DNA of 64,000 bases from Fibrobacterota bacterium (GTDB taxonomy: Bacteria > Fibrobacterota > Fibrobacteria > UBA11236): positions 72,249 to 136,248 of the forward strand of contig JAQBPO010000064.1 in the NCBI GenBank assembly GCA_028287465.1, in the 5' to 3' direction. Positions 1,434 through 64,000 of this stretch are shown in pieces (position 1 is the stretch's first letter; every line of letters starts with the position of its first letter). The notes below the pieces were generated by a model, which made no database searches, was not told where the DNA came from, and saw only the letters and a program-made list of their open reading frames with translations. The position numbers and the translations under genes were made by a program.

Positions 1434-1456
1434 CGGCAAAGCGGTGATGCGCGCCA

Positions 1457-11131: not shown

Positions 11132-11381
11132 TTCCCCCCCATTTCGGCCGGCCGGAACCCTCCGGGGCCATGACCGGAAACCACGCATCGGTGGTTTCGC
11201 GGGCCCCGGGTCACGGCTTTGCCGGCCATGCCTGTCTTGAAAAGGTAAGCAAGGTTGGGGAAAATCACCGCTAACCATTCAGTAAAAACGGCAAAACCGC
11301 CTACCCGGAGTTAAATTAGGTCTTTTCTCCTTGAACCGGGGCTATGGTAAACATGGTATTGGACATCTCCCGTAGAGGATA

Positions 11382-11897: not shown

Positions 11898-12313
11898 TCG
11901 CCGGGCCCGTCCCATCCGGCCGCGGCGGCGGGCAGTCCGGACTCACCCTGATGGAGATCATGATCGCCATCGTGGTCATCGCCATAGGCGTGGGCGTATT
12001 CGTCACCATGCAGAAGAACTCGGGCAGCAACCTGGCCGGGAACAGCAAGATGATGCGGGCGGGGCAGCTGGTGGAAAAGCACGTAGAGGCCATGCGGATC
12101 GGCATCGCGCGGGACACGGCGGGCAATTGGCCGCCCAACGACACCTCCTACACCGAAGCCGGGCTCAAGGTGGAGCGGAGGATCTCGCAGGCGGTATCGC
12201 CCAAGACCCTGACGGTCCTCTCCAATGTCCGCAAGGTGGATATCATCGTTTCCTGGGGCAAGTCGCACCAGGACAGCCTGGACGTAACGACCTATGTATC
12301 GCGCAGATTCTGA
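11894..12313 (+). CDS. pseudopilin (GspI/PilV-like), prepilin-type N-terminus
   Basis: GQSG|LTLMEIMIAIVVIAIGV with Glu at +5. It is translationally coupled to both neighbours. Confidence 0.55.
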   Translation: MIAGPVPSGRGGGQSGLTLMEIMIAIVVIAIGVGVFVTMQKNSGSNLAGNSKMMRAGQLVEKHVEAMRIGIARDTAGNWPPNDTSYTEAGLKVERRISQAVSPKTLTVLSNVRKVDIIVSWGKSHQDSLDVTTYVSRRF

Positions 12314-30977: not shown

Positions 30978-31254
30978 GTGTCCTTAGCGTTTGGTACGCG
31001 TCGCCCAGAAAGCTTCAATATATGAATTCCCCCTACCCGCATGGAAAAAAATGGCGAAGCTAACGATTCTGAAGGCCCCGCGATGGTGTGAAGGCTCCCC
31101 GGGAGCCTATAGACAAAGGGGTGCCCGCTTAATATCTTCTCGACCGCCTTGCAGGAAGCGCTCCGGGAAGAAACCGGAGATATGGAGAAACCGCCCATCG
31201 GGTGGATTCCCCTAAATGACCCGCCCGGCGGTTCATCGCATAACGAGGAATTCC

Positions 31255-31460
31255 GTGAGAATCGGAAGCGAGCTCGTCGCTGTAAGCGGTACGAAACTTC
31301 CAGGCGGAGCCCTTTCAATGGGCCGCCGACCACTGGTTCACCTCTACTTCGACCCCCGGGTCGGGAAGCGGACCGGGAAGGGGAAGGAGTAGGCAGGCAG
31401 TCGCGCCACAAGCGCGGCTTCCGGAATCCGCGAGCCAGAAGACTCACCTGCCAGGGATCT
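31255..31460 (+). promoter_or_regulatory. candidate cobalamin (AdoCbl) riboswitch in the 630-bp leader of the BtuB-like receptor gene
   Basis: Segments resembling btuB-leader elements, in the correct order. GGTACGAAACTTCC at 31288-31301 is like GGTGCGAAnTCC. GACCACTGG at 31328-31336 is B12-box-like. GGGAAGCGG and GGGAAGG follow. AGCCAGAAGAC-tca-CCTGCC at 31433-31452 compares with AGCCAGGAGACCTGCC. The matches are imperfect. Confidence 0.35.
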
Positions 31461-31608
31461 GATTGGCCTTCGAAGCCGAGGTCGACGGAATGCAGCCGGA
31501 ATCCCAAGGATCCCGATCCGCCTCCGTTGCCCCCCGTTCCGATAGTCCGGTCCCATACTGCGTCCCGTCCGGCCCAGATCCCGGACGCCGCGAGGAGTTT
31601 CGGGCATC

Positions 31609-33657
31609 ATGGCTTTACGGCCCGCCTATTTGGGGATCTACGCGATCCTGGTTTTCGCGCCGTGGGCCTTCCCCGCCGGGGCGGAACCGCGCGTAGACAC
31701 CTTGGAGCTCCCGGACCGGGAGGGGCGCCCGCTCCCGCCGCCGCCGGCCGCCGCCAAATCCGTGCTCATACCATCCGATGAGGATCGCCAGCTGAGGGAT
31801 CTGGGCGATGTCCTTGAACGCATGTCCGGCCTCCATGTGATGCGGACCGGGCAGTTGGGCGATTACCTGGGGGTTTCCATCCGCGGCTCCTCGGAAGGCC
31901 AGGTCAATGTCTATGTCAACGGAGTGCTCAAGAATCCCGGCGGGGACCCGTCCCTGTTCCTGGGGGATTACGATCTCTCGCGGGTGGAGCGCATCGAGGT
32001 CTATAAGGGGCTCGCTCCCGACGACCTTCCCGGATCCCCCATGGGCGGTGCCATCAATATCATAACGCGCCAGACCGCAAGCGGCCAAGGGGTGCGGGCG
32101 GCACTGACCGCCGGATCCTTCGGATCCCTCCGCGCCAATGGAAGCGTGGACGCGAGCCGGGACGGCCTGAAGCTTCACGCCCAGGCGGGCAGGGACCAGA
32201 GCGAGGGCGACTTCACCTACTACGATGACGCCGGCACGGAGTTCAAGCCCGGTCGGCATCCGGAAGGGGCGCCCAGGCTCGGTGAAGGCGATCTGGTCCG
32301 CAAGACCCGCAGGAACAACGCCCATGGCTTCAGCGAGTTCGACGCGGCCATCGCCTATGCCCCCGCCCCCAGTGCGGAGTTGGGGCTTCAGGCGGATTAT
32401 TCGAGCTTGCGCAAACACATCCCGTCTCCTTATGCGAGCGTCGACTCCTCCGTTTCGGTCGCGGCCTTCCGCGAATCCGATCGCCTCTCGGCCCGCGCCT
32501 ACGGCCGCTGGTCCCTTCCGGGGCTCGAATTGGGCGCGGACGTCTCGGGCGGCTTCCAGGGCGACCTTTTCGTGGACACCTCCATGGCCGGCGGCGCCGT
32601 AGGATTGGGATACGACGATGACGGCAACGACTATTCGGATGCCGCGGTCACCCTCACGGCGCGCGCGGGGATTAGGGAAGGGTTGACCCTTTCCGCCCTG
32701 GCCTCGTACGGGTTAACGGGCTATCGCTACACCAATCGCTTCACGGGAATCGGCCATCCCACCCTGCTCCGCTATACAGGCGACGGGAAGATCACGCCTA
32801 CCTGGGTCTTCCGCCGCCACACCCTGCAGGCCGTCCTCGGCGCCACCCTTCATCTGGAGGAGGAGAGCGCGGGGCCCGCAACGGCCTACGGAGCGGCGGA
32901 AGGATCGGACGGCGATCGTGGCGGGCACTATTCCGCGCGCCTGGGCTACCAGTACCGCCCGTTCGACGGCTTCTGGCTTTTCCTCCAGGGCGGCAATGCC
33001 TATCGGATCCCCACCTTCTTCGAGCGTTTCGGGGATCGCGGCACCCTGCTCGCCAACCCGGATCTGCGTTCCGAGGCGGGCCTGAACGCCTCGATCGGGG
33101 CTCATGCCCAATCGCGCTCGATCTCGCTTGACGTGCAGGGATTCGTCTCGGACGGTAAGCGCATCATCACCATGGTGACGAACTCCCAGTTCGTGATGAT
33201 ATACCGTAACTCCGGGGATACCCGTACCTATGGGCTGGAGGCGGGCCTGTCCCTGGCGCCGAGGACCTGGACCCGCACCGATCTGGATCTCACCCTGCAA
33301 AAGGCCGAGAACCTGTCCGGCGGGACCAAGGTGGACGACTACAAGCTCATCCCCTACCGCCCCCTGACCCAGGCCTCCCTGCGCCAGACCTTCAAGCGCG
33401 GACCCTGGTCGCTCGCGGCCTTGGGATACTACCAGGGCCTCACCTATCCCAACGCCTCGAACCGGCCCAGCCTGTTCGACGGATACAGCCACAATACCGA
33501 ATGGAAGTCCCATTGCGATCTCACGCTTTCCCGGCGGGGCCGGCACGTCCTGGCCGCCGCCTCGGTGCGCAACCTTTTCGACTCCCGCGATTTCGATTTC
33601 TTCAACTACCCCTTGCCGGGCCGGAGCTACGCCGCCACCCTGCAGACCGATTTCTAA
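31609..33657 (+). CDS. TonB-dependent outer-membrane receptor (BtuB-like by context)
   Basis: Signal peptide. Plug-domain motifs GVSIRGSSEGQVNVYVNGV and RIEVYKG. It is 682 aa and ends with a C-terminal Phe (...LQTDF). Confidence 0.75.
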   Translation: MALRPAYLGIYAILVFAPWAFPAGAEPRVDTLELPDREGRPLPPPPAAAKSVLIPSDEDRQLRDLGDVLERMSGLHVMRTGQLGDYLGVSIRGSSEGQVNVYVNGVLKNPGGDPSLFLGDYDLSRVERIEVYKGLAPDDLPGSPMGGAINIITRQTASGQGVRAALTAGSFGSLRANGSVDASRDGLKLHAQAGRDQSEGDFTYYDDAGTEFKPGRHPEGAPRLGEGDLVRKTRRNNAHGFSEFDAAIAYAPAPSAELGLQADYSSLRKHIPSPYASVDSSVSVAAFRESDRLSARAYGRWSLPGLELGADVSGGFQGDLFVDTSMAGGAVGLGYDDDGNDYSDAAVTLTARAGIREGLTLSALASYGLTGYRYTNRFTGIGHPTLLRYTGDGKITPTWVFRRHTLQAVLGATLHLEEESAGPATAYGAAEGSDGDRGGHYSARLGYQYRPFDGFWLFLQGGNAYRIPTFFERFGDRGTLLANPDLRSEAGLNASIGAHAQSRSISLDVQGFVSDGKRIITMVTNSQFVMIYRNSGDTRTYGLEAGLSLAPRTWTRTDLDLTLQKAENLSGGTKVDDYKLIPYRPLTQASLRQTFKRGPWSLAALGYYQGLTYPNASNRPSLFDGYSHNTEWKSHCDLTLSRRGRHVLAAASVRNLFDSRDFDFFNYPLPGRSYAATLQTDF

Positions 33658-33676
33658 CCCAAGCAAAAGGATCCTC

Positions 33677-34795
33677 ATGCCATTCAACACTCCTAGCCGC
33701 GCCCGCGCCGGCATCGCCATCCTCGGTCTCCTGTCCGTGGCGGGACTCGATTCCTGCTTGAACCAGGAAAAGGCGGACGATCCGGTCAGTACCGAAAAGG
33801 CCTTCGTATTCACCGTGAATTCGGACTACAAGACCGGCAGCTATTCCGCTACCGGCATCGACAGCGCATTCGTCAGCCGCGACATCGACGCCATCCACTC
33901 CGATGCGGGCGTACGCTACCTGGGCGGCAACGACATTTTCGTGCTCAACCGGTTCGGGCGGGACAATCTGCAGGTCGTGGATCGCCATAACCTCAAGACG
34001 GTCCTCCAGGTCGCCTTTCCGGCGTTATCCAACCCGCACGATATCGCGGTCAAGGACAGCCTGCTCTACGTCGGTTTTTACGGCGCCTATTCCAAGATCG
34101 GCATCTACAAGCAGTCGGACGGGACCAAGGCCGGGGAAATCGATCTGGCCGCTTACGCGGATACCGCCGATCATTTCCCCGAAGTGACCGAGCTCCTGTT
34201 CATCGGCAAGGATCTCTACGCCCTGATCGCCAACATGGACAACAAGACCTACGGATTCCTGCAGGGCCGCCTCGCGAAAATCGATGTCGCGACCAAGGAG
34301 GTCAAGGTCCTGGACCTTCCCATCAGCAATCCCGTTTCCATGTCCTACGACAAGGCCGCGAACAAATTGTACATCCCCTGCCGCGGGGCCTTCTTCAAGC
34401 CGGGCTCCTTTACCGACCTGGAACTGGACGGCGGCATCGTGGGCGTGAAGCTCTCCGCATTCTCCATCGCGGACACCCTCGCCACGGAAGCCGCCCTGGG
34501 CGGCAGCCTGGGCAAGGCCTATCTGGACGACGGGCGCCTGATCATGGACCTCACCGCAACGGCGGGAGAAAAGCTGGTCGCCATCTCCCTGAAGGACGGC
34601 AAGGCGGAGGAGTGGGCGTCGCTGAAGCCGTATAGCCTGGGCGGCACCGACATCGACGCGAAGAACGGCACCTTGTACATCGGCGATCGCGAAAATGGGT
34701 TGCGCTTTTTCGACCTCGCGACCGGTAAGGAAAAGGACGGGTCCCCGATCAGGATGAGCGATCTGCCCATCAGCGATCTGGCCGTGATCCGGTGA
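33677..34795 (+). CDS. surface lipoprotein with beta-propeller-like repeats (BtuG/YncE-like by context)
   Basis: Lipobox AGLDSC. Repeated blade-end motifs ...LYVGFYG, ...LYALIAN, ...LYIPCRG and ...LYIGDRE. It sits immediately downstream of the TonB receptor. Confidence 0.45.
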   Translation: MPFNTPSRARAGIAILGLLSVAGLDSCLNQEKADDPVSTEKAFVFTVNSDYKTGSYSATGIDSAFVSRDIDAIHSDAGVRYLGGNDIFVLNRFGRDNLQVVDRHNLKTVLQVAFPALSNPHDIAVKDSLLYVGFYGAYSKIGIYKQSDGTKAGEIDLAAYADTADHFPEVTELLFIGKDLYALIANMDNKTYGFLQGRLAKIDVATKEVKVLDLPISNPVSMSYDKAANKLYIPCRGAFFKPGSFTDLELDGGIVGVKLSAFSIADTLATEAALGGSLGKAYLDDGRLIMDLTATAGEKLVAISLKDGKAEEWASLKPYSLGGTDIDAKNGTLYIGDRENGLRFFDLATGKEKDGSPIRMSDLPISDLAVIR

Positions 34796-35038: not shown

Positions 35039-36922
35039 ATGCTCCGCTTTTCCTGGGAATGGGATCTGCTGGCTTCCCCGGAAGCCCTTTGGCCCCTGGT
35101 TTCGGATTCCGATCGCTTCAACCGCGATTCCGGGATCCCCAACCTCGTGATGAGGGGGGAAGGACCCGAAAGGGTGATCGCCTTCAAGAAATTCGGCTAC
35201 CTGGTGCGTTGGCGCGAAGAACCGTTCGAATGGTCCCGTCCGCGCCGCTTCGCGGCCGCGCGCCATTACCTGAGCGGACCGTTCCGGGAAATGAAGGTCG
35301 CGGTCCACCTGGATCCTTTGCCCTCGGGAGGCACGCGCCTGCGGTACGAAACCACCGTGGAACCGCGTCATCCCTGGTCCGGTCCCGCCCTGTCCCTGGG
35401 ATTCCGTCTGATCCTGAAGCGCCGCTTCACCGCGATCTTCCGCGCCTATGATCGGGCCGCTATACGATCCGCATCGGACCCGCAATCCCAGGCGGATCCG
35501 GCTTCCGGAGGCGCGCCGGGCATGCTGCGCGCTCCCGCCGCCGCGCCGCTCACCGCTCCGGAACGTACCTTCGCCCCCTCCGGCAAGGCCCGCCTGTCCG
35601 CGCGCTTCCAGGACCTGCTTGCCGCAGGGGCCGACCCGCGCCTGGCCGCACGCCTGCGCCTGTTGCTGGAGGACGGTGACGATTCGGAACTGACCCGCAT
35701 CCGTCCCTATGCCATGGCCGCCGTCTGGGGAGCCGATCGCAGGGCCACCCTGGAAACCTGCATGCTCGCGGCCCGGACCGGTCTCCTGGATTTCCGCTGG
35801 GATCTGCTGTGCCCGTCCTGCCGCGGGGCCAAATTCACCGCCGCCCGCCTCAAGGACATCCGCGGGCCCGTGCATTGCGATTCCTGCAACATCGATTTCC
35901 GCGCCGCCTTCGATCGTTCCGTAGAGGTCACCTTCGCGGCCAACCGCTCCATCCGCGCTCCTTCGTCGGGGGAGTACTGCGTAGGCAGCCCCCAACGCAC
36001 TCCCCATGTGCACCTGCGCCATACCCTGGAGCCGCGCACGGCCATGACCGTGGATCTGGTCCTCGATCCGGGAAGGTACCGCCTGCGTTCCCCTTCCTTC
36101 GAAGGCGCCTGTCACCTGCGCGCCGGGAAGGACGGGAACGTCCACGCGCATGCCGAACCCGGTCCCGGAGGCTGGCCCCACGGCGAGACGGTCTGGAATA
36201 CCCATACGCGCCTATCCCTGGCCAATCCCACGGACCGCCCACTCGTATTCATCCTGGAGCGCAATGCCTGGGCCGACGACGCGGCCACGGCCGCCGAGGT
36301 CACCGCCCTGCAAAGCTTCCGCGATTTGTTCGCCGACGAGGCGCTGCGCCCGGGCGAGGAGATATCGGTGGGCAGCCTGGCCTTCCTCTTCACCGATCTG
36401 CGCGGTTCCACCCGCCTCTACCGCGATGCCGGCGACGCCAAGGCCTTCGGCCTGGTCATGGAGCATTTCGACATCCTCAAGGCCGTCATAGCCGAAGAGG
36501 GCGGCGCGGTGGTCAAGACCATCGGCGACGCCGTGATGGCCGTATTCCCCAGGCCCCATTCCGCCGTGCGCGCGGCCCTGGAAGCGCACCGCCGCCTCCG
36601 GGAATCGCAGCCTTCCCTGGTGCTCAAGGCCGGGGTCCATTGCGGCCCCTGCATCGCCGTGAGCCAGAACGATCGCCTGGATTATTTCGGTTCCACCCTC
36701 AACCTGTCCGCGCGGCTGCTGGGGTTCTCCCAAGGGGGTGACCTGGTGGTTACCCAGGAGACCGGGCGGGATCCGGAAACCGCCTCCTGGCTGGCGGCCA
36801 ATGCCGGCACCTGCAAGATCGAGAAAATCAGCACCCCGATCCGGGGTTTCGAACAGGACGCCTTCGCCCTCCTGCGTATTTCCCCCGATGCGGCCGTATC
36901 CGCCCCCGCCGTGACGAAATAA
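35039..36922 (+). CDS. class III adenylate/guanylate cyclase domain protein with an N-terminal ligand-binding-like domain and a Cys4 zinc-ribbon-like segment
   Basis: Cyclase domain FLFTDLRGSTRLY...VVKTIGDAVMAVFP...GVHCGPCIAV...GSTLNLSARL. CPSCRG...CDSC in the middle. Confidence 0.65.
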   Translation: MLRFSWEWDLLASPEALWPLVSDSDRFNRDSGIPNLVMRGEGPERVIAFKKFGYLVRWREEPFEWSRPRRFAAARHYLSGPFREMKVAVHLDPLPSGGTRLRYETTVEPRHPWSGPALSLGFRLILKRRFTAIFRAYDRAAIRSASDPQSQADPASGGAPGMLRAPAAAPLTAPERTFAPSGKARLSARFQDLLAAGADPRLAARLRLLLEDGDDSELTRIRPYAMAAVWGADRRATLETCMLAARTGLLDFRWDLLCPSCRGAKFTAARLKDIRGPVHCDSCNIDFRAAFDRSVEVTFAANRSIRAPSSGEYCVGSPQRTPHVHLRHTLEPRTAMTVDLVLDPGRYRLRSPSFEGACHLRAGKDGNVHAHAEPGPGGWPHGETVWNTHTRLSLANPTDRPLVFILERNAWADDAATAAEVTALQSFRDLFADEALRPGEEISVGSLAFLFTDLRGSTRLYRDAGDAKAFGLVMEHFDILKAVIAEEGGAVVKTIGDAVMAVFPRPHSAVRAALEAHRRLRESQPSLVLKAGVHCGPCIAVSQNDRLDYFGSTLNLSARLLGFSQGGDLVVTQETGRDPETASWLAANAGTCKIEKISTPIRGFEQDAFALLRISPDAAVSAPAVTK

Positions 36923-37035
36923 ACCGCAACCTTTCCCAAAAAACCAAAGCTTTTAGTCAGATCTTTGTCATATCATAAGGGTGATTGGGGGATTGGCGTC
37001 CCCTGGCCCGCCGCCCGGGTACGCCAGACAATCTT

Positions 37036-38862
37036 ATGGTGATCAGCCCTTCGCGAACCGTCCTTCGGCCCGTCCTTCTCACCGCCTTCTACCTGTTTTG
37101 CCCAAATCTCTTTTGCGCTAAACCCGCCGCGGCTGCCGAGGACTACGCCGCATGGCCCAACGCCACCGACGTCATCCTGAACACCTCCGCGACCGGCGCC
37201 GGCGTGGCCGGCACCGTCGCCAATTTCCCGGTGCTGGTACGGCTCACCTCCGCCAACTTCCCCTTTTCCCAGGCCGGCGGGAAAGGCCGGGACATCCGTT
37301 TCTCGAAACAGGATCGCACCCCGCTCGATTACGAGATCGAACGCTGGGACTCGACCCGCGCCCAGGCCGAGATCTGGGTCAGGCTGGACGAGGTGCGCGG
37401 GAACGCCGCGGGACAGATCGTGCGGATGTACTGGGGAAACCCGTCGGCCGCGGACAGTTCCGACGCGGCGGCCGTCTTCCGGGGGGCTGACGGCTATGTG
37501 GCCGCCTGGCACTTGGGGGTTCCCGGGACCGCGGCGCGCCCGAACGCGGTGGCGGGAGGCAATCCGGCGGCGCCCAACTCGTACGATGGGGACGAGAATT
37601 CCGCCGGCCTCATCGCCGGCGCGGACAGCCTGGACGGAACCGCTACCGGGGATTTCCTGGACATCGGCGACGGTTATACGGAGTTCACCGCCGGATTCAC
37701 CTATTCGGCCTGGGTCTATCCCACCGCCATGAAACGATGGTCGCACGTCCTCGACCTGGGGAACGGCACCGGCAACGACAACATCATCGTGAACCGGGTG
37801 GACACCACCGCGGCCATGGGATTCCACAATTGGACCGGGACCAACTCCTACGCCAAGGAGGTGCCCAACCAATGGGCGCTCAATCAATGGCAGTTCATCA
37901 CGGTCACCATGACGGGGAAGAACGTGCGCATGTACAAGAACGGCGCGCAAATCCTGGCGGACACCCTTCCCGGCGCCATGACCGGCGTGAACCGCACGAC
38001 CAACTACCTGGGCAAATCCAACTGGGCCGCGGACGATTTCTTCCAGGGCAAGCTGGACGAACCCGTTCTGGCCAAGACCGTGCGCAGCGCCGACTGGATC
38101 AAGCTGAGCTACCAGAACCAGCGCGCCGCCCAGACCCTGGTGACGGTGGTGAAGCCGGTGCAGTGCGCGGCCAGGATAAGCGTCCCCCCCGATACCACGG
38201 TGCCGGAAGGCGGTTCACTTACCCTGAACGCCGGCGTCGAATGCGCGGCGGGCTTCTCCTGGTCCGTGATCTCCGGGCCGGCGCCGCGCATCCTGGATCC
38301 GGAAACCAAATCCCTGGCCGTAGCGATCCCCCGCGTGGCCGCCGACACCGTCATCGTGTACCGCCTGACCGCGGAATTCTCCGACTCCACCAGGACCCGG
38401 GACGTGCGCGTGCGCATCAAGGAATCCATCCCGGATCCGATCTTCACCCTTCCCGCCATCCCATCCTGGAGCGGCAAGGAAGCGATTGCCTACCGGCCCG
38501 CCATCTCCAACCTGGCCGCCATCAAGGCCAGCCGGGATTCGGCGCTGCATTGGACGTGGAGTTTCGCCGGACCGGCCGTGGATACGTCCTGGCTGGAGGA
38601 CGGCATGACCTTGAAAAGCGCGGAGGGCGCGGGCGCATTGCAGATCGGGTTGTGCCTGGACAACGGCGGGCCGATCGTTTGCAGGAACGCCGCTTTGACC
38701 ATCACCGGTTCCGCGGCCTCCATGCTCCAGGCCCAATCGACTCCCCAAGGCCAAATAACCAAAACGGACCCCGGCCGTGACGCCCTCGGAAGGGCGGCGG
38801 ACGGGCCGATTACGCCTCGCAAGGCCGGCCGGCCGGGAATTGCGCGTTACCCCCGAAAATAA
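37036..38862 (+). CDS. secreted DUF2341 + LamG (concanavalin-A-like) protein, MshQ-like, with a shared C-terminal module; paralog A
   Basis: DUF2341-like FPVLVRLTSANFPFSQAGGKGRDIRFS...YEIERWD...AEIWVRL. LamG-like FTYSAWVYPTA...NQWQFITVTMTGKNVRMYKNGAQI...FQGKLDEP. Start placed at MVISPSRTVLRPVLLTAFYLFCP (signal peptide). Confidence 0.55.
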   Translation: MVISPSRTVLRPVLLTAFYLFCPNLFCAKPAAAAEDYAAWPNATDVILNTSATGAGVAGTVANFPVLVRLTSANFPFSQAGGKGRDIRFSKQDRTPLDYEIERWDSTRAQAEIWVRLDEVRGNAAGQIVRMYWGNPSAADSSDAAAVFRGADGYVAAWHLGVPGTAARPNAVAGGNPAAPNSYDGDENSAGLIAGADSLDGTATGDFLDIGDGYTEFTAGFTYSAWVYPTAMKRWSHVLDLGNGTGNDNIIVNRVDTTAAMGFHNWTGTNSYAKEVPNQWALNQWQFITVTMTGKNVRMYKNGAQILADTLPGAMTGVNRTTNYLGKSNWAADDFFQGKLDEPVLAKTVRSADWIKLSYQNQRAAQTLVTVVKPVQCAARISVPPDTTVPEGGSLTLNAGVECAAGFSWSVISGPAPRILDPETKSLAVAIPRVAADTVIVYRLTAEFSDSTRTRDVRVRIKESIPDPIFTLPAIPSWSGKEAIAYRPAISNLAAIKASRDSALHWTWSFAGPAVDTSWLEDGMTLKSAEGAGALQIGLCLDNGGPIVCRNAALTITGSAASMLQAQSTPQGQITKTDPGRDALGRAADGPITPRKAGRPGIARYPRK

Positions 38863-39006
38863 ATCCAGCCTCCGCCCAAGATCCTAAAACGATTTCCCGC
38901 CTCCGGGACGTATCGTATTGGCGGGGGGATGACGTTCCGGCTACCGCCGGGGCGGCGTCATCAAGATCACGTGGCAAACAACCTGGCTCGCGATTTCCGT
39001 CGTACC

Positions 39007-40833
39007 ATGCTCAACATCGGCTCCAAGGCCTTCCTTACGGCTTCGGCCCTGGGCGCCGTGGCCATGATGGCCGCCGCGGAAGCGGCGGAAAACTATTCCA
39101 CCTGGGGACGCGCCTCGGACCTCATCCTGGATACCTCGCCCGCGGGCGCGGACGTTCCCGGCCCCCTGAGCGACTTCCCCCTGCTGGTCCGGCTCAACGC
39201 GTCCAACTTCACCTTCGCCGAAGCGCGCGGCCGGGGCCAGGACATCCGCTTCTCCGATGCGGCCGGGTCGCCGCTCGACTACCAGATCGAGCGCTGGGAT
39301 TCCGCGCGGGCCCTCGCGGAGATCTGGGTCAGGATCCCCCTTGTCTCGGGCAATGCCGCCGGGCAGACCTACCATATGCATTGGGGCAAATCGACGGCCG
39401 CCGACAGTTCGGACGGGCGGGCGGTGTTTTCGAACCACCAGGTGGCGGTGTGGCACATGGGCGGGACCGGAGCCAACGCCCGCGCAAACTCCGCCCCAGG
39501 CGGCCAGGCGGCCCAACCGTACAATTACGAATCCGACAAATCCCGCGATGGCATCATCGCCAAGGCGGACACCCTGGACGGCCAGGATCCCGGCGATTAC
39601 CTGGACATCGGGGACGGATACCAGGACTTCTCCGGCGGCTTCAGCTTTTCCATCTGGGCCTACCCGACCGCCGTGAAGAACTACGCCCGCTTCTTCGAAT
39701 TGGGCAACGGCGAAAGCGCGGACAATATCATGCTCACGCGCGACGGGACATCCGACGACCTGCGATTCGACAATTACAATCCCGGGGCCACGGTAAGCAC
39801 GGTCAAAAGCGGCGCGGCCATCTCCCTGAACCAATGGCAGCAATTCGGCGTCAACGTCTCCACGTCCGGGCTCGCGAAGATCTACAAGAACGGCGCGGTC
39901 ATCGCGCAAGGACAGCTCACCAATACCGTAGCCAACGTCTGGCGCGCTTCCAACTTCCTGGGGAAATCGAATTGGACCTGGGACGCCTATTTCCAGGGCA
40001 TGCTGGACGAACCGGCGCTGAGCAATATCAGCCACAGCGACAACTGGTACAAGCTCTGCTACCAGAACCAGAGGCAGGCCCAGACCCTGGTCACGGTCAA
40101 GCGCCCCGCCCTCTGCCAATCCCGGTTCAAGGGGCAGGCCGACACGGCGGTGAATGAAGGAGCCACGGTGAATCTGACGGGCACGGCAGACTGCGCTACC
40201 GGGGTATCCTGGAGCGTCCTTTCCGGGCCCGCCCCGCGCATCCTCGATCCGGAAATGAAGGTCCTCACGGTCGCGATGCCCCGCGTTTCCGGGGAGACCG
40301 TCATCGTCTACCGGTTCGCCGCCGCCTACGCGGATTCCTCGCCCTACAAGGATGTCCGGGTGACCATACGGGAGACCGTCCCCGATCCCGATTTCACCAT
40401 GCCTCCGCTCACCGCATGGGACGGCAAGATCGCCGTGGCCTACCGGCCCGCCATCGCGAACCTTTCCGCCATCAAGGCTTCGGCGTCTCCCGTCATCCAT
40501 TGGGCCTGGACCTTGTCCGGCGTGGCCGCGGATACCGCCTGGCTCGCGGACGGACTCAACCTCAAGACCGCCGCGGCGGAAGGGCCCTTGCAGATAGGAT
40601 TGTGCCTGGACAATTCCGGTGCCCGCGTTTGCAAATCAGCCTCGATCACGGTCTCCCGCACCGCCGGCAGCACCTCGTCCTTGATCGATCGGACCGCCGC
40701 CTCGGCCAAGCGCCCGGGGGATCCCAGGGCGGACCGTGAATGGCGCGACGCATCCGGCCGTCTCCGGACCGGCGCCTACGGCGGCATCAACCCGGGCGGC
40801 CGCTTCGCAGGCAAATCCAGGCCAGCCCCATGA
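39007..40833 (+). CDS. secreted DUF2341 + LamG protein; paralog B of the upstream gene
   Basis: Same architecture and about 60% identity to paralog A (FPLLVRLNASNFTFAEARGRGQDIRFS...). Signal peptide MLNIGSKAFLTASALGAVAMMAAA. Confidence 0.55.
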   Translation: MLNIGSKAFLTASALGAVAMMAAAEAAENYSTWGRASDLILDTSPAGADVPGPLSDFPLLVRLNASNFTFAEARGRGQDIRFSDAAGSPLDYQIERWDSARALAEIWVRIPLVSGNAAGQTYHMHWGKSTAADSSDGRAVFSNHQVAVWHMGGTGANARANSAPGGQAAQPYNYESDKSRDGIIAKADTLDGQDPGDYLDIGDGYQDFSGGFSFSIWAYPTAVKNYARFFELGNGESADNIMLTRDGTSDDLRFDNYNPGATVSTVKSGAAISLNQWQQFGVNVSTSGLAKIYKNGAVIAQGQLTNTVANVWRASNFLGKSNWTWDAYFQGMLDEPALSNISHSDNWYKLCYQNQRQAQTLVTVKRPALCQSRFKGQADTAVNEGATVNLTGTADCATGVSWSVLSGPAPRILDPEMKVLTVAMPRVSGETVIVYRFAAAYADSSPYKDVRVTIRETVPDPDFTMPPLTAWDGKIAVAYRPAIANLSAIKASASPVIHWAWTLSGVAADTAWLADGLNLKTAAAEGPLQIGLCLDNSGARVCKSASITVSRTAGSTSSLIDRTAASAKRPGDPRADREWRDASGRLRTGAYGGINPGGRFAGKSRPAP

Positions 40834-41836
40834 ACAGCGCCGTGGCCCCGTAGGCCAGGGTTATCATGCGGGTTACGTCCCGGGGCGCCCCCCCTTCCGG
40901 AGCGTCACCGGGCCCGATCCATATTTCATTGACCAGGATCCCGTGTTTGCGGATGGGGCCCGCCAGGCGGATATCCAACGCCCCGGCCGCGGCGGTCTCG
41001 CTCCAACCCTTGTTGGGGCCCGGCAAAAGGGCATGCTGGCCGATCGCGACGGTCCAGGCCTTGCGCCCGGAGTATCCCGGAACGAGGCAAGCGAAGAGGG
41101 CAATGAGGCCCAGGCAGAGGCGCGCCGGGATCCAATTCATCACGTCGTCCAGGCGCGCGCCGAACCAGCCGAAGCGGAGATAACGTTCGTCCTTGTATCC
41201 CACCATGGAATCCATGGTGCTCGCCACCTTGAACAGGATAAGGCCCGGCAGGCCCAGCAAGGCGAACCAGAACAAAGGCGCGATCACGCCGTCGCATAGG
41301 CTTTCAGCCAGGCTTTCCACCGCGGCCCGGTTGCACGCCGCGAAGTCCATGCTGTCGACGTCCCGGCCCACCAGCATGGCCGTGGCCGCACGGGACGCGG
41401 CCAAATCCCCGCGCCGGGTGGCCACCGCAATCCGTTTGCCGTGGCGGATGAGATCGCCGAGGGCCAACAGGCTGTATCCCAGATAGGCCCTCCAGATCCA
41501 ATCCATCGCCCAGCCATAGGCGGGCGCGCCCGCGGCCTCCCCGGCCTTCCTCAGGGCGAAGGACACGGCCCAACCGGCGCCGTCGAAACCGGCCGCGAGG
41601 GACAGGAAGAGGAGGAATCCGCCGAACCGCCCGTCCAGACCGAACCAGCGCAGTCGGGATTCGGCCGACGCCAACGCCTTGCCCATCACCCGGATGGGGT
41701 GCAACCGGTACTGCGGATCGCCCAGGACGATGTCGAGCGCGAGGCAGATGGCGATGAAGGGGAAAGGGCCCCGGAGCGGGCCGTCCGGTCCGAACAGGCC
41801 GATGATGCCCACCCTTACTTCCATTTCTCGCGCCAC
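40787..41836 (-). CDS. cobD: cobalamin biosynthesis protein CobD/CbiB (adenosylcobinamide-phosphate synthase)
   Basis: Polytopic membrane protein with LGDPQYRLHPIRVMG and RD...SPNKGWSETAAAGALDIRLAGP motifs, about 330 aa. Confidence 0.7.
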   Translation of the reverse strand: MAREMEVRVGIIGLFGPDGPLRGPFPFIAICLALDIVLGDPQYRLHPIRVMGKALASAESRLRWFGLDGRFGGFLLFLSLAAGFDGAGWAVSFALRKAGEAAGAPAYGWAMDWIWRAYLGYSLLALGDLIRHGKRIAVATRRGDLAASRAATAMLVGRDVDSMDFAACNRAAVESLAESLCDGVIAPLFWFALLGLPGLILFKVASTMDSMVGYKDERYLRFGWFGARLDDVMNWIPARLCLGLIALFACLVPGYSGRKAWTVAIGQHALLPGPNKGWSETAAAGALDIRLAGPIRKHGILVNEIWIGPGDAPEGGAPRDVTRMITLAYGATALFMGLAWICLRSGRPG

Positions 41837-43011
41837 CCCAGGGCCAAGGCCTGCGCGGCCAGCGCGGGAATATCGGAGGATTGCGCCGCCAGGGCCGAGC
41901 GGAAGTACGGGAATGCTTCCGTCTTCGCCGCCAGCCCCGCCGCCATCATGGCCGCCTGGTTGGCCAGGAGTTCCCGGCCCGAGGCTTCAGGTAGGGTTCC
42001 GTATGCGATGCGATCGCGCACCGCGGCCAAGGCGTAAGCCGCTCCGGCCACGAGGGGTTCATGGACCACGGCCTGGAAGTTCGCCTGCAGCAGGGCCCGG
42101 TCCTTCTCCTCGAGATGCGCGCATGCGGCCTCGAGCAGCTTCGCCTCTTCCACCCCGAACCTCCCCAGGGCGTGGATGAGATTGCGGGTGCGCGAAGGTT
42201 CCAGCCCGTTCTGCCAGCGCAGGGCTTCCTTGGTCGCTTCCGTCACGGCGCGGGCGAGGATCTCACCCAGCTTGGAATGCTTACCGGTCCAGGTCTTGGG
42301 GCCGCGGGCGGGATCGATGGGCGCGGCAAGGCAGAACTGGTCCGTGCCGGTTCCGGTGGCCAGGTTCGGGGAAAAGCGGCTGGACACGGCCAGCTCCAGG
42401 AGCGCCGCCGTCTTCGCTTCGGTCATGGTGGCTACGGCGCGGCTCAAGGCGGCGGGCAGCAAAGGCCAATTGAAGATCACCATGGTATTGATGGTTCCCG
42501 GGACGGCATGAACGGGTTTCCAGGCGGTCGCGGCGTTCCCCGTCCCGGCCGCTCCGCCCTCCATGCCGCTCTCATGCTTTTCATGCCAGGTGGCGGGATC
42601 CCCCGCCCTGCCCGCATTGCCCTGCACGCCGGCGGTCACGACCGACCATACCGTGATCTCCTCGAAGGACTCCTCCCGGACCGATGCGTACTGCATGTTC
42701 GCGGCCGTGCCCATCAAGGCGGTTTCCTCCGCCGGGACCCCGGCCTCTTCGCAGGCCAGGCCATGGTAGGCCTCCTGTCCCTGTCCGATCAAGATGTCAT
42801 GGCGGGCGATATGCCCCTTCCCTTCCGTGCTCTGATGGTTCAGGAGGAAGCGCATCCGTTCGGACTGGCCTCCGTTCACGTGGGAGGTGGAGAGGACCAG
42901 ATGGGGTTTTTTTAGATCGGCGGACAGGAAACGGCCTCGCCTGCGCAGGGTGAACCCGTCCGTCTCCAGCAAGGTGATCGCGTCGGCGGCGGGATCGTTG
43001 GCGTTCTTCAT
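41815..43011 (-). CDS. CbiZ-like adenosylcobinamide amidohydrolase family protein with a C-terminal extension of about 150 aa
   Basis: Start placed at MKNANDPAADAITLLETDGF. The longer ORF N-terminus is GC-artefact-like. It contains LVLSTSHVNGG and GTGTDQF segments and overlaps cobD by 22 nt. The family assignment is from memory. Confidence 0.35.
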   Translation of the reverse strand: MKNANDPAADAITLLETDGFTLRRRGRFLSADLKKPHLVLSTSHVNGGQSERMRFLLNHQSTEGKGHIARHDILIGQGQEAYHGLACEEAGVPAEETALMGTAANMQYASVREESFEEITVWSVVTAGVQGNAGRAGDPATWHEKHESGMEGGAAGTGNAATAWKPVHAVPGTINTMVIFNWPLLPAALSRAVATMTEAKTAALLELAVSSRFSPNLATGTGTDQFCLAAPIDPARGPKTWTGKHSKLGEILARAVTEATKEALRWQNGLEPSRTRNLIHALGRFGVEEAKLLEAACAHLEEKDRALLQANFQAVVHEPLVAGAAYALAAVRDRIAYGTLPEASGRELLANQAAMMAAGLAAKTEAFPYFRSALAAQSSDIPALAAQALALGWREKWK

Positions 43012-43056
43012 CGCCGAAAAGTAGCACCAAAGCGGGACAGGCGGTAGAATCGGGGT

Positions 43057-43830
43057 ATGAGGTCCCTGGCCGCGGCCGCCGCCGCCTGCATGTTCCTGTC
43101 CTGCCTTGCCCCGTGGCAATCCGGCGAGCGCTCCTGCGCGGATTCGGCGCGCCTGGATTTCCCCGTGGATCTGGCGGCCTATGCGGCCAACGGCAGCCTG
43201 TGGCCCTTCGGCGTCCACGGAGGCACCAATCCGGAAGGCCATCCCGGCATCGACCTGTTCCTGGATACCGCCGACGCGGAGGGGGATATCGCCGTCCGGG
43301 CCTCTTTCTCCTCCGAGATCATCTCCATAACGCCGGAAACGGAATTCCCCGGCAGCTCCTGCATCGTCATGGATTCCGCCTGCGTGGAAGTGAACCTCTG
43401 CCATGTGCGCTTGGATCCGTCCCTCAAGGAAGGCGGCAAGGTGAAGCGCGGGCAGGTGCTCGGGACCGTAGGCCTGGCCGGGAGCGAGGGCCGCTTGGCC
43501 CTGCATTTCGGGACGTACAGCGGCCGGGACGCCGACCTGGCGTGCCCGGCGGATTTCCTGGATCCGGATACCGTGCTATGCCGCCTGGGGCTTTCCGCGG
43601 GGGGGAAGGCGCCTTCCCGGTGTGGTTACGCGCCGGGTACGGTAACCTTGATGGGACGATCGGAATACGGGGAGCGCTTTCCCCGGGAGCTTGCCGTCAA
43701 GTGCGCGGACGGGTCCACCCAGGTATTCGACCTCGCCGCCGAGAACGCCCTCTGCAGCCCCCGTTATTCCCCAGCGGACCGCTCCCGGATGCTGACCTGC
43801 CTGGGCAATGCCTGCGCCGGGGTCTGGTAG
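43057..43830 (+). CDS. lipoprotein, possibly an M23/LytM-like metallopeptidase domain
   Basis: Lipobox MFLSCLAP. HPGIDLF and RLALHFGTY resemble the M23 HxxxD and HxH motifs. Rich in Cys. Confidence 0.3.
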   Translation: MRSLAAAAAACMFLSCLAPWQSGERSCADSARLDFPVDLAAYAANGSLWPFGVHGGTNPEGHPGIDLFLDTADAEGDIAVRASFSSEIISITPETEFPGSSCIVMDSACVEVNLCHVRLDPSLKEGGKVKRGQVLGTVGLAGSEGRLALHFGTYSGRDADLACPADFLDPDTVLCRLGLSAGGKAPSRCGYAPGTVTLMGRSEYGERFPRELAVKCADGSTQVFDLAAENALCSPRYSPADRSRMLTCLGNACAGVW

Positions 43831-44102: not shown

Positions 44103-44600
44103 ATGAATCCCAGCCTGGTCTTGGGTATGGTGATGGTCGCAACGACCGTAGGTCTTGCTCCGGCCCAGAATCTGGGATTGGGGACGGGATCGCGCTCGAA
44201 TCCGGCCGAAGATTCCTCCGCAGCCATCGAAGGGCGCCAGGAGCGCCAGGACGAGGCCCCCAACCCGCGCAAGACCCAATTCAACCGCCGCCTGGGTCTG
44301 GCCGCCAGGAAGGCCAGGGTCTTCGATCCCAAGGAATTCGAAGCGCGCGGCCGCGAATTGCAGGGGCAGTACTACGAAATCGGCACGCCGGCGAACCCCA
44401 AGCAGCAAACCGGCCCGAACGCCACCGTAGGCACCATGGCCCTGAATCCTAAATCCGGATCGAAGCAATGGGTATTCTGGGTCGGCGTGGCGGGTGCCGC
44501 GGGTGTTTCCGCGGGAACGGTGGGATACCTCCTGATGAACAAGGCGCATCCGGCCTCGGCGCCGCCCCCCAAACACCTGGTCCTGACGGACGAACCCTGA
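44103..44600 (+). CDS. hypothetical secreted/membrane protein
   Basis: N-terminal hydrophobic MNPSLVLGMVMVATTVGLAPAQ and a C-terminal TM WVFWVGVAGAAGVSAGTVGYLLM. Confidence 0.4.
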   Translation: MNPSLVLGMVMVATTVGLAPAQNLGLGTGSRSNPAEDSSAAIEGRQERQDEAPNPRKTQFNRRLGLAARKARVFDPKEFEARGRELQGQYYEIGTPANPKQQTGPNATVGTMALNPKSGSKQWVFWVGVAGAAGVSAGTVGYLLMNKAHPASAPPPKHLVLTDEP

Positions 44601-44605
44601 ACCGT

Positions 44606-45598
44606 ATGTCCGCCCGCCCCGCATTCCTTGCCTGCCTGGCGATTCCCGCGCTCGCGCTGGGCCTTATGATGGCGGGCTGCCAGACCGCCGAGGTCCCCGA
44701 AGCGGAAACGGTGCTGGACGTCAAGCTGAACGATTCCCTCAGCCGCTACGACCGGGTGGTCGTGCAGATCGTGGATCGGGCGGATACCAACAAGGTGCTC
44801 GCGACCTTGTTCGACGGTCAGCTCCGCTTGCCGGGCAAGGGGATCGACCCGTATCCGCTGGGATCCCTGGCGAAGCAATCCTTCATCGTCAAGGTGACCG
44901 CCTATAAGGCCCTGGGGCAACTGGCCCTGAACACCCTGATTTTCTACGAGGGCGGAACGGCCAAGCCGAGCGTGCTCCATAAGGAAGTGCCTCCCTTGAT
45001 CCCGCACGATTGGCTGACCAAGATCACCCCGTCCCAAGGCGCCTTGTCCCCGGCCTTCGACAAGGACTCCCTCAACTACACCATCAACGTGGCCTCCGGG
45101 GCCGCCCTTACTTTTTCCATGACGCCCTTCTACAACGGGGCCTCGATCGCGTTCGACGGACAATCGCTCGCCGCCGGGACGGCGAGCAAGGCCATCACGG
45201 TCGAAACCGAGCCGGATACCGTCTCCGTTCTGGTCACGGACCTTTCCACCGGCGTCGCCTCCACGCGCACCTACAGCATCATCGTCAAGCCCATAGAGGC
45301 GCCTGGCATCTACCTGGGAAGCCTGGTGCCCAGCGCCGGTACCCTCAATCCTCCCTTCAAGGCCATCACCCAGATCTATTCCCTCAAGCTCCCTCCCGGC
45401 GTGGACACGGTGGCGTTCGTCATCACCCCCGCGGACGCGAGAACCATGACCATGACCGTCAACGACAAGGCGGTCCTCCCGGGCCAGCGTTCCCAGACCT
45501 TCAAAATCCTACCGGGAATTTCCTTCCCGATTCCCATCCAGGTCTACCGCGACGGCAATTCCCGATTCTACCAGGTGACCGTTGACTTGGCGAATTAG
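44606..45598 (+). CDS. lipoprotein with two cadherin-like beta-sandwich domains
   Basis: Lipobox GLMMAGC. ITPSQGALSPAFDKDSLNYTINV and LVPSAGTLNPPFKAITQIYSLKL match the G.LSP.F......Y...V cadherin-like pattern. Confidence 0.5.
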   Translation: MSARPAFLACLAIPALALGLMMAGCQTAEVPEAETVLDVKLNDSLSRYDRVVVQIVDRADTNKVLATLFDGQLRLPGKGIDPYPLGSLAKQSFIVKVTAYKALGQLALNTLIFYEGGTAKPSVLHKEVPPLIPHDWLTKITPSQGALSPAFDKDSLNYTINVASGAALTFSMTPFYNGASIAFDGQSLAAGTASKAITVETEPDTVSVLVTDLSTGVASTRTYSIIVKPIEAPGIYLGSLVPSAGTLNPPFKAITQIYSLKLPPGVDTVAFVITPADARTMTMTVNDKAVLPGQRSQTFKILPGISFPIPIQVYRDGNSRFYQVTVDLAN

Positions 45599-55103: not shown

Positions 55104-55130
55104 GCGCGCCCGTCCCGAACATTCAAGCAC

Positions 55131-62072: not shown

Positions 62073-62390
62073 GATATGATTATGGACAAACCGGAAAACC
62101 ACATGAACGAACATGCCACCACTCCAAATCCCCCTCGCTCAAGTCTTCTCCGCTGGGCGGGCCTAGTCCGAAGGCGCTTTGGATCCGCTCAGGCCCGAGA
62201 ACCGCGTCTCCCATTCCCGGGGAGGCCGCAATCCACGCATCCGCACCCCGTGTCCCCCAACCACTAACCGCGGGATCCGGAGCGAATGCGCCGCCAAATA
62301 ATAGTTATGGTATGGTTGGAGCGTATCGATCAGGCTGGATGAAAATTTGCCCCCGGATGGAACGAAAACCTAAAATCCTATATTAGCGGA

Positions 62391-63421: not shown

Positions 63422-64000
63422 CTAGCGGCCCGTTTTGACCGCGAGGAAATCCAGGCGCGCAGCCCCCATGCGCAGGGAGCGCTCCGCGCCCGCGGGCAAT
63501 TGCGCCGATGAACCGGGAGCGCCCCAGGTCTGCCACAGGATCCTGCCGCGCCAGTCCATGACCCGCGCCAGCCCGGGCCTGTTCCATCCGAGCCGGTTCC
63601 CGTCAAGCCAGACCGGACCCGAATGCGTCCTGCCCAGGAGCAGGGACAGGGAAATGCGCTTGACCTCCACCACGGCCTTGGAGCAGGACGGCGCGCCGCC
63701 ATTGTCCACGCACAGGGAGATCTCGATGTTGCCGTCCTCCTGCGCCTCATGCAGCACCAGGGAATCCCCCGCTACGCTGGAATCCGCGATGTAGGGATTG
63801 ACCGCCCACAGGTAACGCAGGGGATACTTGGGGAACTTCGCGAGCTCGGCCGCGTTCGCGATCTTGGGGCGGATGACCTTCTTGCCTTCGCCGTTCCAGG
63901 ACGGCAGGACGGGCAAGGCGACCGAAGGATCGGGAATGGTGTCCTTCACCTTGACGGTCACGTTCTTGGACTCCCAGTTGCCGCCGAACAGGGCCGAGAA
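63422..64000 (-). CDS. 3' part of a secreted surface protein carrying the same C-terminal module and sorting-type tail as the giant adhesin; 5' end lies beyond the window
   Basis: The frame stays open to nt 64000. ...VTVKVKDTIPDPSVALPVLPSWNGEGK...NIEISLCVDNGGAPSCSKAV...LGWNRPGLARVMDWRGRILW is parallel to the C-terminus of 57639..62072. Confidence 0.6.
   Translation of the reverse strand, partial: FSALFGGNWESKNVTVKVKDTIPDPSVALPVLPSWNGEGKKVIRPKIANAAELAKFPKYPLRYLWAVNPYIADSSVAGDSLVLHEAQEDGNIEISLCVDNGGAPSCSKAVVEVKRISLSLLLGRTHSGPVWLDGNRLGWNRPGLARVMDWRGRILWQTWGAPGSSAQLPAGAERSLRMGAARLDFLAVKTGR

Follow-up and report, generated by a model that had tools for sequence, protein, structure and literature searches.

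Two paralogous DUF2341-LamG proteins, putative surface glycan binders, are encoded within a gene cluster for vitamin B12 uptake and salvage in Fibrobacterota

The window examined here is the whole 64,000-nucleotide stretch of Fibrobacterota DNA that was analysed. An initial annotation had placed two adjacent genes within positions 36985-40833, and open reading frames on the same strand were found there at 36985..38862 and 38929..40833 (p1 and p2; Table 1). The p1 reading frame opens at a TTG codon (36985), but its orthologs and the NCBI gene call support the ATG at 37036, which yields a 608-aa protein; the identical protein is found in an independent Logan assembly. The true start of p2 is in doubt, because its signal peptide begins at Met27 (ATG 39007) of the called sequence. 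Both proteins carry signal peptides, as had been proposed, and these are of the Sec type; the DUF2341 and LamG motif strings quoted for the pair can be read in either translation. The family alignment that includes p1 shows conservation of the mature N-terminus, AEDY.xW. BLASTP aligned the two proteins over 577 aa with 49% identity and 66% similarity (E = 0). They are paralogs of old origin, in a family that is specific to Fibrobacterota and whose members are all about 600 aa long. The pair occurs together in at least four genomes and as a single copy in seven. The description of the genes as a tandem duplication was correct as to paralogy, but applies only in an old sense; each copy falls in a clade of its own, and both clades are conserved in several genomes.

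Table 1. Coordinates of the features discussed, in window positions.
Feature	Coordinates	Strand	Description
Cobalamin riboswitch	31212..31463	+	RF00174, 53.3 bits; directly upstream of receptor
TonB-dependent receptor	31609..33657	+	BtuB-like candidate
Lipoprotein, seven-bladed propeller	33677..34795	+	Best structural matches are Bacteroides BtuG
SRPBCC-DUF5939-nucleotidyl cyclase protein	35039..36922	+	Between BtuG-like gene and p1; missing here in some relatives
Element 5' of p1	36935..36991	+	Conserved, non-coding; CCCAAA..AAAGnCTTTT..TATCATA..GGGG; promoter or operator candidate
p1 (JWP91_3156)	37036..38862	+	608-aa secreted DUF2341-LamG-Ig-Ig protein
p1 signal peptide	37036..37137	+	Predicted from sequence; Sec-type, MVISPSRTVLRPVLLTAFYLFCPNLFCAKPAAAA / EDY, no standard lipobox
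p1 DUF2341 match	37285..37485	+	Pfam; AF2 beta-sandwich at residues ~35-160
p1 Laminin_G_3 jelly roll	37648..38100	+	Pfam; AF2 domain at residues ~170-365
p1 C-terminal module	38143..38703	+	PKD-like Ig and second Ig-like domain, ending in LCLDNGG...C motif
p1 basic tail	38704..38862	+	Predicted disordered; family-conserved G-R-D-A-x-G-R motif
Matching element 5' of p2	38880..38928	+	CCCAAGATCCTAAAAC..TATCGTATTGGCGGGGGG
p2 (JWP91_3157)	38929..40833	+	Paralog of p1, 634 aa as called
p2 DUF2341 match	39235..39432	+	Pfam
p2 Laminin_G_3 match	39592..40032	+	Pfam
cobD/cbiB	40787..41836	-	Convergent with p2; 3' ends overlap
cbiZ-type adenosylcobinamide amidohydrolase	41815..43506	-	ORF as listed; real start probably further downstream
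165-aa bitopic protein and cadherin-like lipoprotein	44103..45598	+	Also follow family members in genomes without a detected B12-locus homolog
Module with longer WNRPG...W.W.GR tail	57639..58460	-	End of 1491-aa Ig-repeat adhesin
Module with long tail	63425..64000	-	End of ORF running off the window

The DUF2341 plus LamG architecture assigned to these proteins was upheld by comparison with Pfam models, as p1 and p2 scored 55.6 and 51.3 bits against DUF2341 (PF10102; gathering threshold 23.4) and 75.9 and 59.9 bits against Laminin_G_3 (PF13385; gathering threshold 27.6), the latter a jelly-roll fold. The AF2 monomer model contained four domains, namely the DUF2341 sandwich, the LamG jelly roll and two Ig-like domains, followed by a disordered tail, with the C-terminal 50 residues at a pLDDT below 50. 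Its best fold matches were carbohydrate-binding modules, with domain 4 of the GH43 arabinanase AbnA (PDB 5hon) ranked first. This domain and the sialic-acid-binding CBM40 modules are the closest known folds to p1 and p2, but at a sequence identity of only 10-17%, and they are appended to enzymes, whereas p1 and p2 lack a catalytic domain.

The two Ig-like domains form part of a C-terminal module that, as had been suggested, is also found elsewhere in the window: residues ~380-598 of p1 and p2 aligned with 40-44% identity to the C-terminus of a 1491-aa Ig-repeat adhesin (57639..62114, minus strand), and the open reading frame at the window end matched as well. It had further been observed that p1 and p2 stop soon after the LCLDNGG motif and lack the WNRPG tail of the adhesin; we found that they do lack this tail and end 45-65 aa past LCLDN[GS]G. 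The proposal that their C-termini are frame-disrupted was rejected, since no alternative frame contained a WNRPG tail, the homologs of about 600 aa retain an in-frame basic D-A-x-G-R tail, and the independent assembly agreed. Arg and Lys are abundant in these tails, and D582, A583, G585 and R586 are invariant, or nearly so, in 39 full-length (~600 aa) family members. The p1 and p2 tails contain a [hydrophobic]-D-x-x-G-R strand motif; short basic [F/I]D..GR tails also end esterases in the window, and a PA14 protein in the window has a full FlgD_ig-type CTD with the same D-x-x-G-R motif. At E<=10, neither the tails of p1 and p2 nor that of the adhesin matched the Por_Secre_tail, CHU_C and FlgD_ig-type CTD models, whereas the CTD from L083, used as a control, scored on all three; this result counts against a role for the tail in sorting.

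Homologs outside the phylum, in Verrucomicrobia and Planctomycetes (loci L029-L049), aligned at about 30% identity across all four domains (residues ~30-557), the LDNGG motif included. They are longer (~1000 aa) and lack the basic D-A-x-G-R tail; the four-domain module is continued instead by a SASA carbohydrate esterase domain of about 450 aa (fusions in L032, L048 and L037), so that the module is found appended to carbohydrate-active enzymes. Within Fibrobacterota, one paralog adjoins SASA, BNR and rhamnogalacturonan-lyase-type genes. The DUF2341-LamG unit itself is widespread, with 5637 cluster representatives at E<=1e-30, and is repeated up to 21 times in giant proteins, one of which ends in a bona fide T9SS CTD.

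The initial annotation had regarded p1 and p2 as MshQ-type pilus proteins, a view that it would have given up if they clustered with lectins appended to glycoside hydrolases and unrelated to pili. This is essentially what we observed, in that the closest out-of-phylum homologs are joined to a carbohydrate esterase and the best fold match is a domain of an arabinanase. MshQ of the Vibrio cholerae MSHA pilus and PilY1/PilC are, like p1 and p2, secreted; they are large, and ligand binding has been proposed for them. In archaea, type IV pilus loci include genes for DUF2341 proteins, and these have been proposed as tip adhesins (PMC4858521). The window does contain pilin genes, a three-gene N_methyl operon with a PA14 protein (11382..14851) that lies, as had been noted, about 22 kb upstream of the pair. 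If p1 and p2 were tip adhesins of the MshQ/PilY1 type, they would serve a type IV pilus built from these minor pilins (11382-13097), one of which, at 12294-13097, is PilK-like. However, many unrelated genes on both strands separate the operon from the pair, and the operon closes with its own 585-aa PA14 protein. MshQ is about 1200 aa long, its gene directly follows the minor pilin genes mshDOP, and docking via its extreme C-terminal strand has been proposed (PMC12918778), whereas p1 and p2 are half that size (608 and 634 aa), do not follow minor pilins, and have a standard Sec signal and a C-terminus predicted to be disordered. No pilin-type families were found in the gene tables of the relatives' loci examined (10-kb flanks), no pilus-related match was found in NCBIfam and Pfam searches with p1 and p2, and none of the 25 matches listed, of 86 in annotated plasmid and chromid records, was named MshQ. 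With the esterase fusions of the same module added to these observations, a tip-adhesin function is very improbable and already close to refuted.

The unusual feature of the pair is its location inside a gene cluster for vitamin B12 uptake and salvage. The nine top Foldseek matches of the propeller lipoprotein model (pLDDT 90.5) were all B. thetaiotaomicron BtuG structures, at TM 0.7-0.8. In this uncultured soil Fibrobacterota lineage, riboswitch, BtuB-like receptor and BtuG-like lipoprotein together form a system of the Bacteroides type. The order receptor, BtuG-like gene, (cyclase), p1, (p2) and convergent cobD/cbiZ was conserved in at least 12 genomes, with p1 identity down to ~52%, and a cobalamin riboswitch was present in all seven relatives tested. 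In a neighbor-joining tree the locus-resident copies formed one clade, joined by only three others.

This setting raises the question of whether p1 and p2 assist, as accessory proteins at the surface, in corrinoid uptake of the Bacteroides type. As functional analogues of BtuH or BtuJ, they would bind cobalamin or cobinamide extracellularly and pass it to the BtuG-like lipoprotein and the BtuB-like receptor, and the salvaged cobinamide would then be remodelled by CbiZ and CobD. The BtuG resemblance, the riboswitch, the conserved gene order and the tree are all consistent with this idea. The pair lies downstream of, and on the same strand as, the riboswitch, receptor and BtuG-like gene. Bacteroides btu loci, moreover, encode several surface cobamide binders of unrelated folds and have internal promoters (PMC13616437, PMC12751083). 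BtuG, BtuH and BtuJ of B. thetaiotaomicron are encoded in a riboswitch-headed btuB-btuG-type locus, and p1 and p2 lie near similar genes; the layout of p1 and p2 can be likened to the PKD/Ig stalk and binding domain of BtuH and the jelly roll of BtuJ (PMC13616437).

Other observations argue against it. In the window, the sequence TATCRTA-N3-12-GGGG occurs only twice (0.07 expected), upstream of p1 and upstream of p2, within a promoter-like element that is kept upstream of p1 orthologs irrespective of which gene precedes them and is absent from the riboswitch leader and from cobD/cbiZ. Judged by these elements, p1 and p2 would be transcribed independently, each from its own copy. A cytoplasmic cyclase, in one genome together with a histidine kinase, separates the BtuG-like gene from p1, and the conserved adjacency may reflect inheritance rather than function, because synteny extends to clearly unrelated flanking genes. 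Unlike BtuG, BtuH and BtuJ, the family also has paralogs in contexts with no B12 link. More distant family members retain M23, 165-aa and cadherin-like neighbours, and homologs of the window's receptor, BtuG-like lipoprotein, cobD, cbiZ and riboswitch were not found at their loci, nor was the riboswitch found near paralogs or near homologs in other phyla. We detected no sequence similarity to BtuG, BtuH or BtuJ; comparison with Pfam gave no match to DUF4465, the BtuJ jelly roll, at E<=0.1, and the best 50-60 fold matches listed included neither a BtuH nor a BtuJ structure; the signal peptides are, in addition, of the Sec and not the lipoprotein type. A role for the pair in corrinoid capture is thus possible but weakly supported, and we consider it quite unlikely that p1 and p2 are analogues of BtuH or BtuJ, or that a relay of the kind outlined above operates through them. 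It is similarly doubtful that their clade represents, in Fibrobacterota, a novel class of proteins capturing corrinoids outside the cell, with a DUF2341-LamG head, an Ig stalk and a T9SS-like tail, feeding a BtuG-BtuB-type importer and CbiZ/CobD.

An alternative reading is that p1 and p2 are structural or adhesive components of the envelope. They would bind a protein or a polymer of the cell's own surface, as S-layer or cell-cell adhesion proteins do, and not a glycan from outside, and would act together with the 165-aa bitopic and cadherin-like proteins encoded downstream. Homologs of these two proteins follow the family members of L015, L023 and L025, and one relative encodes a fusion of Cadherin-like, DUF2341 and LamG domains. 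Among PDB sequences, the best match (E 1e-14) was a LamG domain from an S-layer-domain protein, and the C-terminal module is shared with the Ig-repeat adhesin. However, two or three genes lie between the pair and the 165-aa and cadherin-like genes in the window, and the fusions to an esterase outside Fibrobacterota suggest that the substrate is a carbohydrate. We regard an envelope function as unlikely.

The explanation that we favor, with a probability of roughly 0.55, is that both proteins are exported via Sec and act as non-catalytic binders, displayed on the cell surface or released from it and most likely recognizing a glycan; the two are old paralogs, each with its own promoter-like element. 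According to this model, the DUF2341 beta-sandwich and the LamG jelly roll would form a lectin- or CBM-like head with a glycan as its most likely ligand, and the two Ig-like domains would serve as a stalk. After export via Sec, the short basic D-A-x-G-R tail, which resembles a cut-down T9SS-type CTD or the "basic terminal domain" (BTD) of Fibrobacter enzymes, may act as a sorting or anchoring signal for display on, or release from, the cell surface. In F. succinogenes, a member of the same phylum, the BTD is a proposed T9SS signal and is borne by non-catalytic CBM proteins (PMC6851124, PMC3079729). Such BTD/Fpm-1 proteins, for example the CBM6+BTD protein Fisuc_2485 (PMC3079729; PMC6851124), share with p1 and p2 a Sec signal, a beta-sandwich head of carbohydrate-binding type and the lack of a catalytic domain, and their short, highly basic C-terminal tail, proposed to function in surface anchoring or as a T9SS signal, is similar by description to that of p1 and p2. 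The head of Fisuc_2485 is a CBM6, however, whereas p1 and p2 have DUF2341 and LamG, two interposed Ig-like domains and a tail unmatched by the T9SS-CTD models. It also counts against a glycan ligand that LamG folds bind proteins, steroids and other small molecules as well, and that no glycoside hydrolase or polysaccharide-utilisation gene adjoining the pair was found in the window. Glycan binding on its own, moreover, leaves unexplained the stable placement of the genes between those for B12 uptake and salvage.

If the favored reading is correct, the finding is an ordinary one: the pair joins a large and uncharacterised group of DUF2341/LamG surface proteins that has already been catalogued. 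Neither the pilus nor the frameshift idea needs to be retained. As the SASA esterase fusions and the repeats in giant proteins indicate, DUF2341-LamG behaves as an appended carbohydrate-binding unit, which serves better as a working annotation than type IV pilus component. Should the pair prove to bind corrinoids, it would represent a new B12-binding fold outside Bacteroidota, and would extend the "extracellular cobamide relay" of Bacteroides to another phylum via an unrelated binding fold.

Both open reading frames showed the codon-position GC pattern of real genes (GC3 of 0.83-0.84 in this 64% GC genome), and their products, p1 and p2, were exact database matches to genes JWP91_3156 and JWP91_3157 of a Fibrobacteres bacterium MAG. 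Profile searches placed both proteins past the Pfam thresholds for DUF2341 and Laminin_G_3, and the two were 49% identical over 577 aligned amino acids, confirming the initial annotation's description of adjacent DUF2341 and LamG paralogs. Comparison with orthologs placed the start of p1 at ATG 37036, giving a 608-aa protein; the true start of p2 is uncertain because its signal peptide begins at Met27. In an AF2 model built from the family alignment (mean pLDDT 86), DUF2341 formed a beta-sandwich (residues ~35-160) and LamG a jelly roll (~170-365), followed by two Ig-like domains (~370-462 and ~470-556) and a disordered tail. A PDB sequence search with p1 returned no useful match, and the only two NCBIfam matches of p1 and p2, to a myxosortase-dependent M36 peptidase and to FimH, were far below threshold, lay over the Ig-like region and were set aside. 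We consider p1 and p2 to be old paralogs encoding non-catalytic, surface-displayed lectin/CBM-like proteins, a reading to which we assign a probability of roughly 0.55.

Full-length relatives of at least 40% identity were confined to uncultured Fibrobacterota, with several paralogs per genome (MAG RYN_348, for example, supplied six loci). Neighbor-joining trees, of which the topology alone was used, and cautiously, placed p1 and p2 in separate clades that together held nearly all locus-resident genes, indicating an old duplication with subsequent loss in some genomes. A tandem duplication, as proposed, thus holds only as an ancient event. The DUF2341-LamG unit gave 5637 matches at E<=1e-30 among 1.84 billion cluster representatives, a single protein holding as many as 21 copies, and many Fibrobacterota and Chitinivibrionia loci contained tandem arrays or giant proteins of repeated units, one of these giant proteins terminating in a recognised T9SS CTD. 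Homologs in Verrucomicrobia/Planctomycetes were ~30% identical across all four domains and continued into a SASA carbohydrate esterase domain, that is, one of sialate O-acetylesterase type. These fusions come close to the glycoside-hydrolase-appended lectins unrelated to pili that the initial annotation had set against its own view.

That view, that p1 and p2 are MshQ-type pilus proteins, was not supported. The minor-pilin operon lies 22 kb from the pair, separated from it by genes of both strands that include esterases, isomerases and kinases, and closes with a PA14/GLEYA-domain protein of 585 aa, its most natural tip-adhesin candidate. No pilin-type family appeared in the gene tables of the relatives' loci examined, with 10-kb flanks. 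MshQ itself is a protein of ~1200 aa, encoded directly after mshDOP and proposed to dock via a C-terminal strand (PMC12918778); the link between DUF2341 and pili stems from archaeal loci (PMC4858521), and other authors regard DUF2341 as appended to ExbB-like proteins (PMC12505986). Matches listed for the unit in annotated plasmid and chromid records include an alginate lyase family protein, a MotA/TolQ/ExbB fusion and a "DUF2341 domain-containing protein"; none of those listed bears the name MshQ. Flagella are suggested for this Fibrobacterota lineage by genes elsewhere in the window, which encode a CheA-like kinase (Hpt + HATPase_c), FapA and a MotA/MotB stator pair.

The C-terminal module shared by p1 and p2 (residues ~380-598) was found to be real, as it also occurs at the C-terminus of the adhesin and in an open reading frame running off the window end. 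Its first part scored in the adhesin as a K319L-like PKD domain, and the module alone, used as a homolog query, gave only 12 matches, mostly short or fragmentary. The adhesin is a secreted protein of 1491 aa with at least five I-set/Ig_3 repeats, the shared PKD/Ig module and a tail of ~75 aa (WNRPG...W.W.GR) that matched no Pfam or NCBIfam model. The suggestion that the C-termini of p1 and p2 are frame-disrupted relative to this tail was rejected because translation of both genes beyond the LCLDN[GS]G motif revealed a WNRPG-like tail in none of the three frames. Furthermore, the tail motif G/R-x-D-A-x-G-R was conserved across 39 aligned family members, each about 580-630 aa long (G585 and R586 invariant, D582 and A583 in at least 90%), and an independent Logan assembly of SRR13312996 encoded the identical 608-aa protein. 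The motif of p1 and p2 aligned with the adhesin-tail segment ...W-T-W-Q-G-R-L-L-W, indicating that their tails are shortened, in-frame versions of the adhesin tail.

Short basic tails of the form [F/I]-D-x-x-G-R also terminate BD-FAE-type esterases of the window. Three BD-FAE/abhydrolase esterases ended in such tails with D-x-x-G-R-like motifs (FDLLGRLRRG, IDAAGRQR and RGILGRPA), and a second PA14 protein ended in a full FlgD_ig-type CTD (IFDRSGRLV...GVYYW). Taken together, the esterase tails and this CTD suggest that proteins of this genome share a C-terminal sorting signal, which occurs in a long and a truncated form. Many CAZymes and some non-catalytic CBM proteins of F. succinogenes carry a basic terminal domain proposed as a T9SS sorting signal (PMC3079729, PMC6851124). 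The tails of p1 and p2 are alike to this domain, a suggestive resemblance, yet the Pfam T9SS-CTD models matched neither their tails nor that of the adhesin.

Positions of the features discussed, in the window or, where a locus handle (L) is given, in another genome
Feature	Position	Strand	Remark
CheA-like kinase, FapA, MotA/MotB	123-3490; 54327-55931		
Esterases with basic tails, PA14 protein	8898-10004; 10091-11278; 14932-15954; 47936-49006	-	tail motifs; PA14 protein at 47936-49006
Pilin operon	11382-14851	+	three N_methyl pilins, then PA14 protein
Cobalamin riboswitch	31212-31463	+	Rfam; directly upstream of TonB-dependent receptor
Predicted BtuBG unit	31212-34795	+	
Cyclase	35039-36922	+	SRPBCC/Polyketide_cyc2, DUF5939, class III nucleotidyl cyclase; three-domain protein
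Shared non-coding element	36935-36991; 38880-38928	+	CCCAAA...TATCRTA-N3-12-GGGG; upstream of p1 and p2
p1 ORF	36985-38862	+	adjoins p2, same strand
p2 ORF	38929-40833	+	adjoins p1, same strand
165-aa protein + cadherin-like lipoprotein	44103-45598	+	
Adhesin	57639-62114	-	
165-aa/cadherin-like neighbours	L015 12002-12744; L023 14390-15942; L025 3688-4973		after family members
DUF2341-LamG-Ig-Ig + C-terminal SASA fusions	L032 9947-13150; L048 9902-13000; L037 7940-12949		~1000-1670 aa; Verrucomicrobia and Planctomycetes
Cadherin-like + DUF2341 + LamG fusion	L087 17077-18849		

Unexpectedly, the pair lies within a vitamin B12 locus. The lipoprotein following the TonB-dependent receptor, predicted to be a seven-bladed propeller, was modeled by AF2 at pLDDT 90.5, and its top nine PDB matches were BtuG of Bacteroides thetaiotaomicron (TM 0.7-0.8); on this model, the segment beginning at the riboswitch encodes a corrinoid uptake unit of the Bacteroides BtuBG type in an uncultured Fibrobacterota lineage, and it is kept in at least 12 related MAGs. 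The cyclase, p1 and p2 follow in that order, and the 3' end of p2 faces the convergently oriented cobD/cbiB and cbiZ. The same arrangement, with cyclase and p2 variably present, was found in L002-L013 and L089, and the riboswitch was confirmed in all seven relatives tested. Besides the window, L006, L007 and L089 had the tandem pair, as probably did L013 and L016, where a contig break splits it; a single copy occurred in L002, L004 and L008-L012. Most relatives, though not all, have the cyclase between the BtuG-like gene and p1; L089 carries a histidine kinase/response regulator hybrid there in addition.

This adjacency to B12 genes, stable over substantial divergence, raises the alternative that p1 and p2 capture corrinoids, for which Bacteroides offers a precedent in loci with several unrelated surface cobamide binders, including jelly-roll BtuJ and PKD/Ig-stalked BtuH, and with internal promoters (PMC13616437, PMC12751083). 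The intergenic regions from the receptor through the BtuG-like and cyclase genes to p1 contained no intrinsic terminator, and the BtuG-cyclase spacer folded no better than shuffled sequence, results that speak neither for nor against read-through. Against a B12 role, p1 and p2 are each preceded by a conserved element of their own. In orthologs, the p1 element lies 60-90 nt 5' of p1 whether the cyclase or the BtuG-like gene precedes, and includes a pair of short palindromes, AAAGnCTTT and CTTATCATAAG; p2 is preceded by a related element. The core TATCRTA-N3-12-GGGG occurred only at these two sites in the window (0.07 expected), indicating that p1 and p2 are probably under their own shared regulation, and the element may be a promoter or an operator. 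Cytoplasmic signalling genes also separate p1 from the BtuG-like gene, and the synteny runs on into unrelated flanks. Neighborhoods of paralogs lacked a B12 link, one of them including SASA, BNR and rhamnogalacturonan-lyase-type genes, and no cobalamin riboswitch was found near nine paralog loci or seven Verrucomicrobia/Planctomycetes loci. Finally, distant members (L015, L023 and L025) kept M23, 165-aa and cadherin-like-lipoprotein neighbors, with homologs of the window's B12 locus undetected. We therefore regard corrinoid capture as unlikely, and prefer the lectin/CBM-like reading.

The 165-aa protein (N-terminal signal, C-terminal TM helix) and the cadherin-like lipoprotein recur downstream of family members, including at loci in which homologs of the B12 genes were not detected, and one relative encodes a fusion of cadherin-like, DUF2341 and LamG domains. 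These two proteins and the family members may form a functional partnership. Corrinoid capture by p1 and p2 would, if true, be an interesting outcome.
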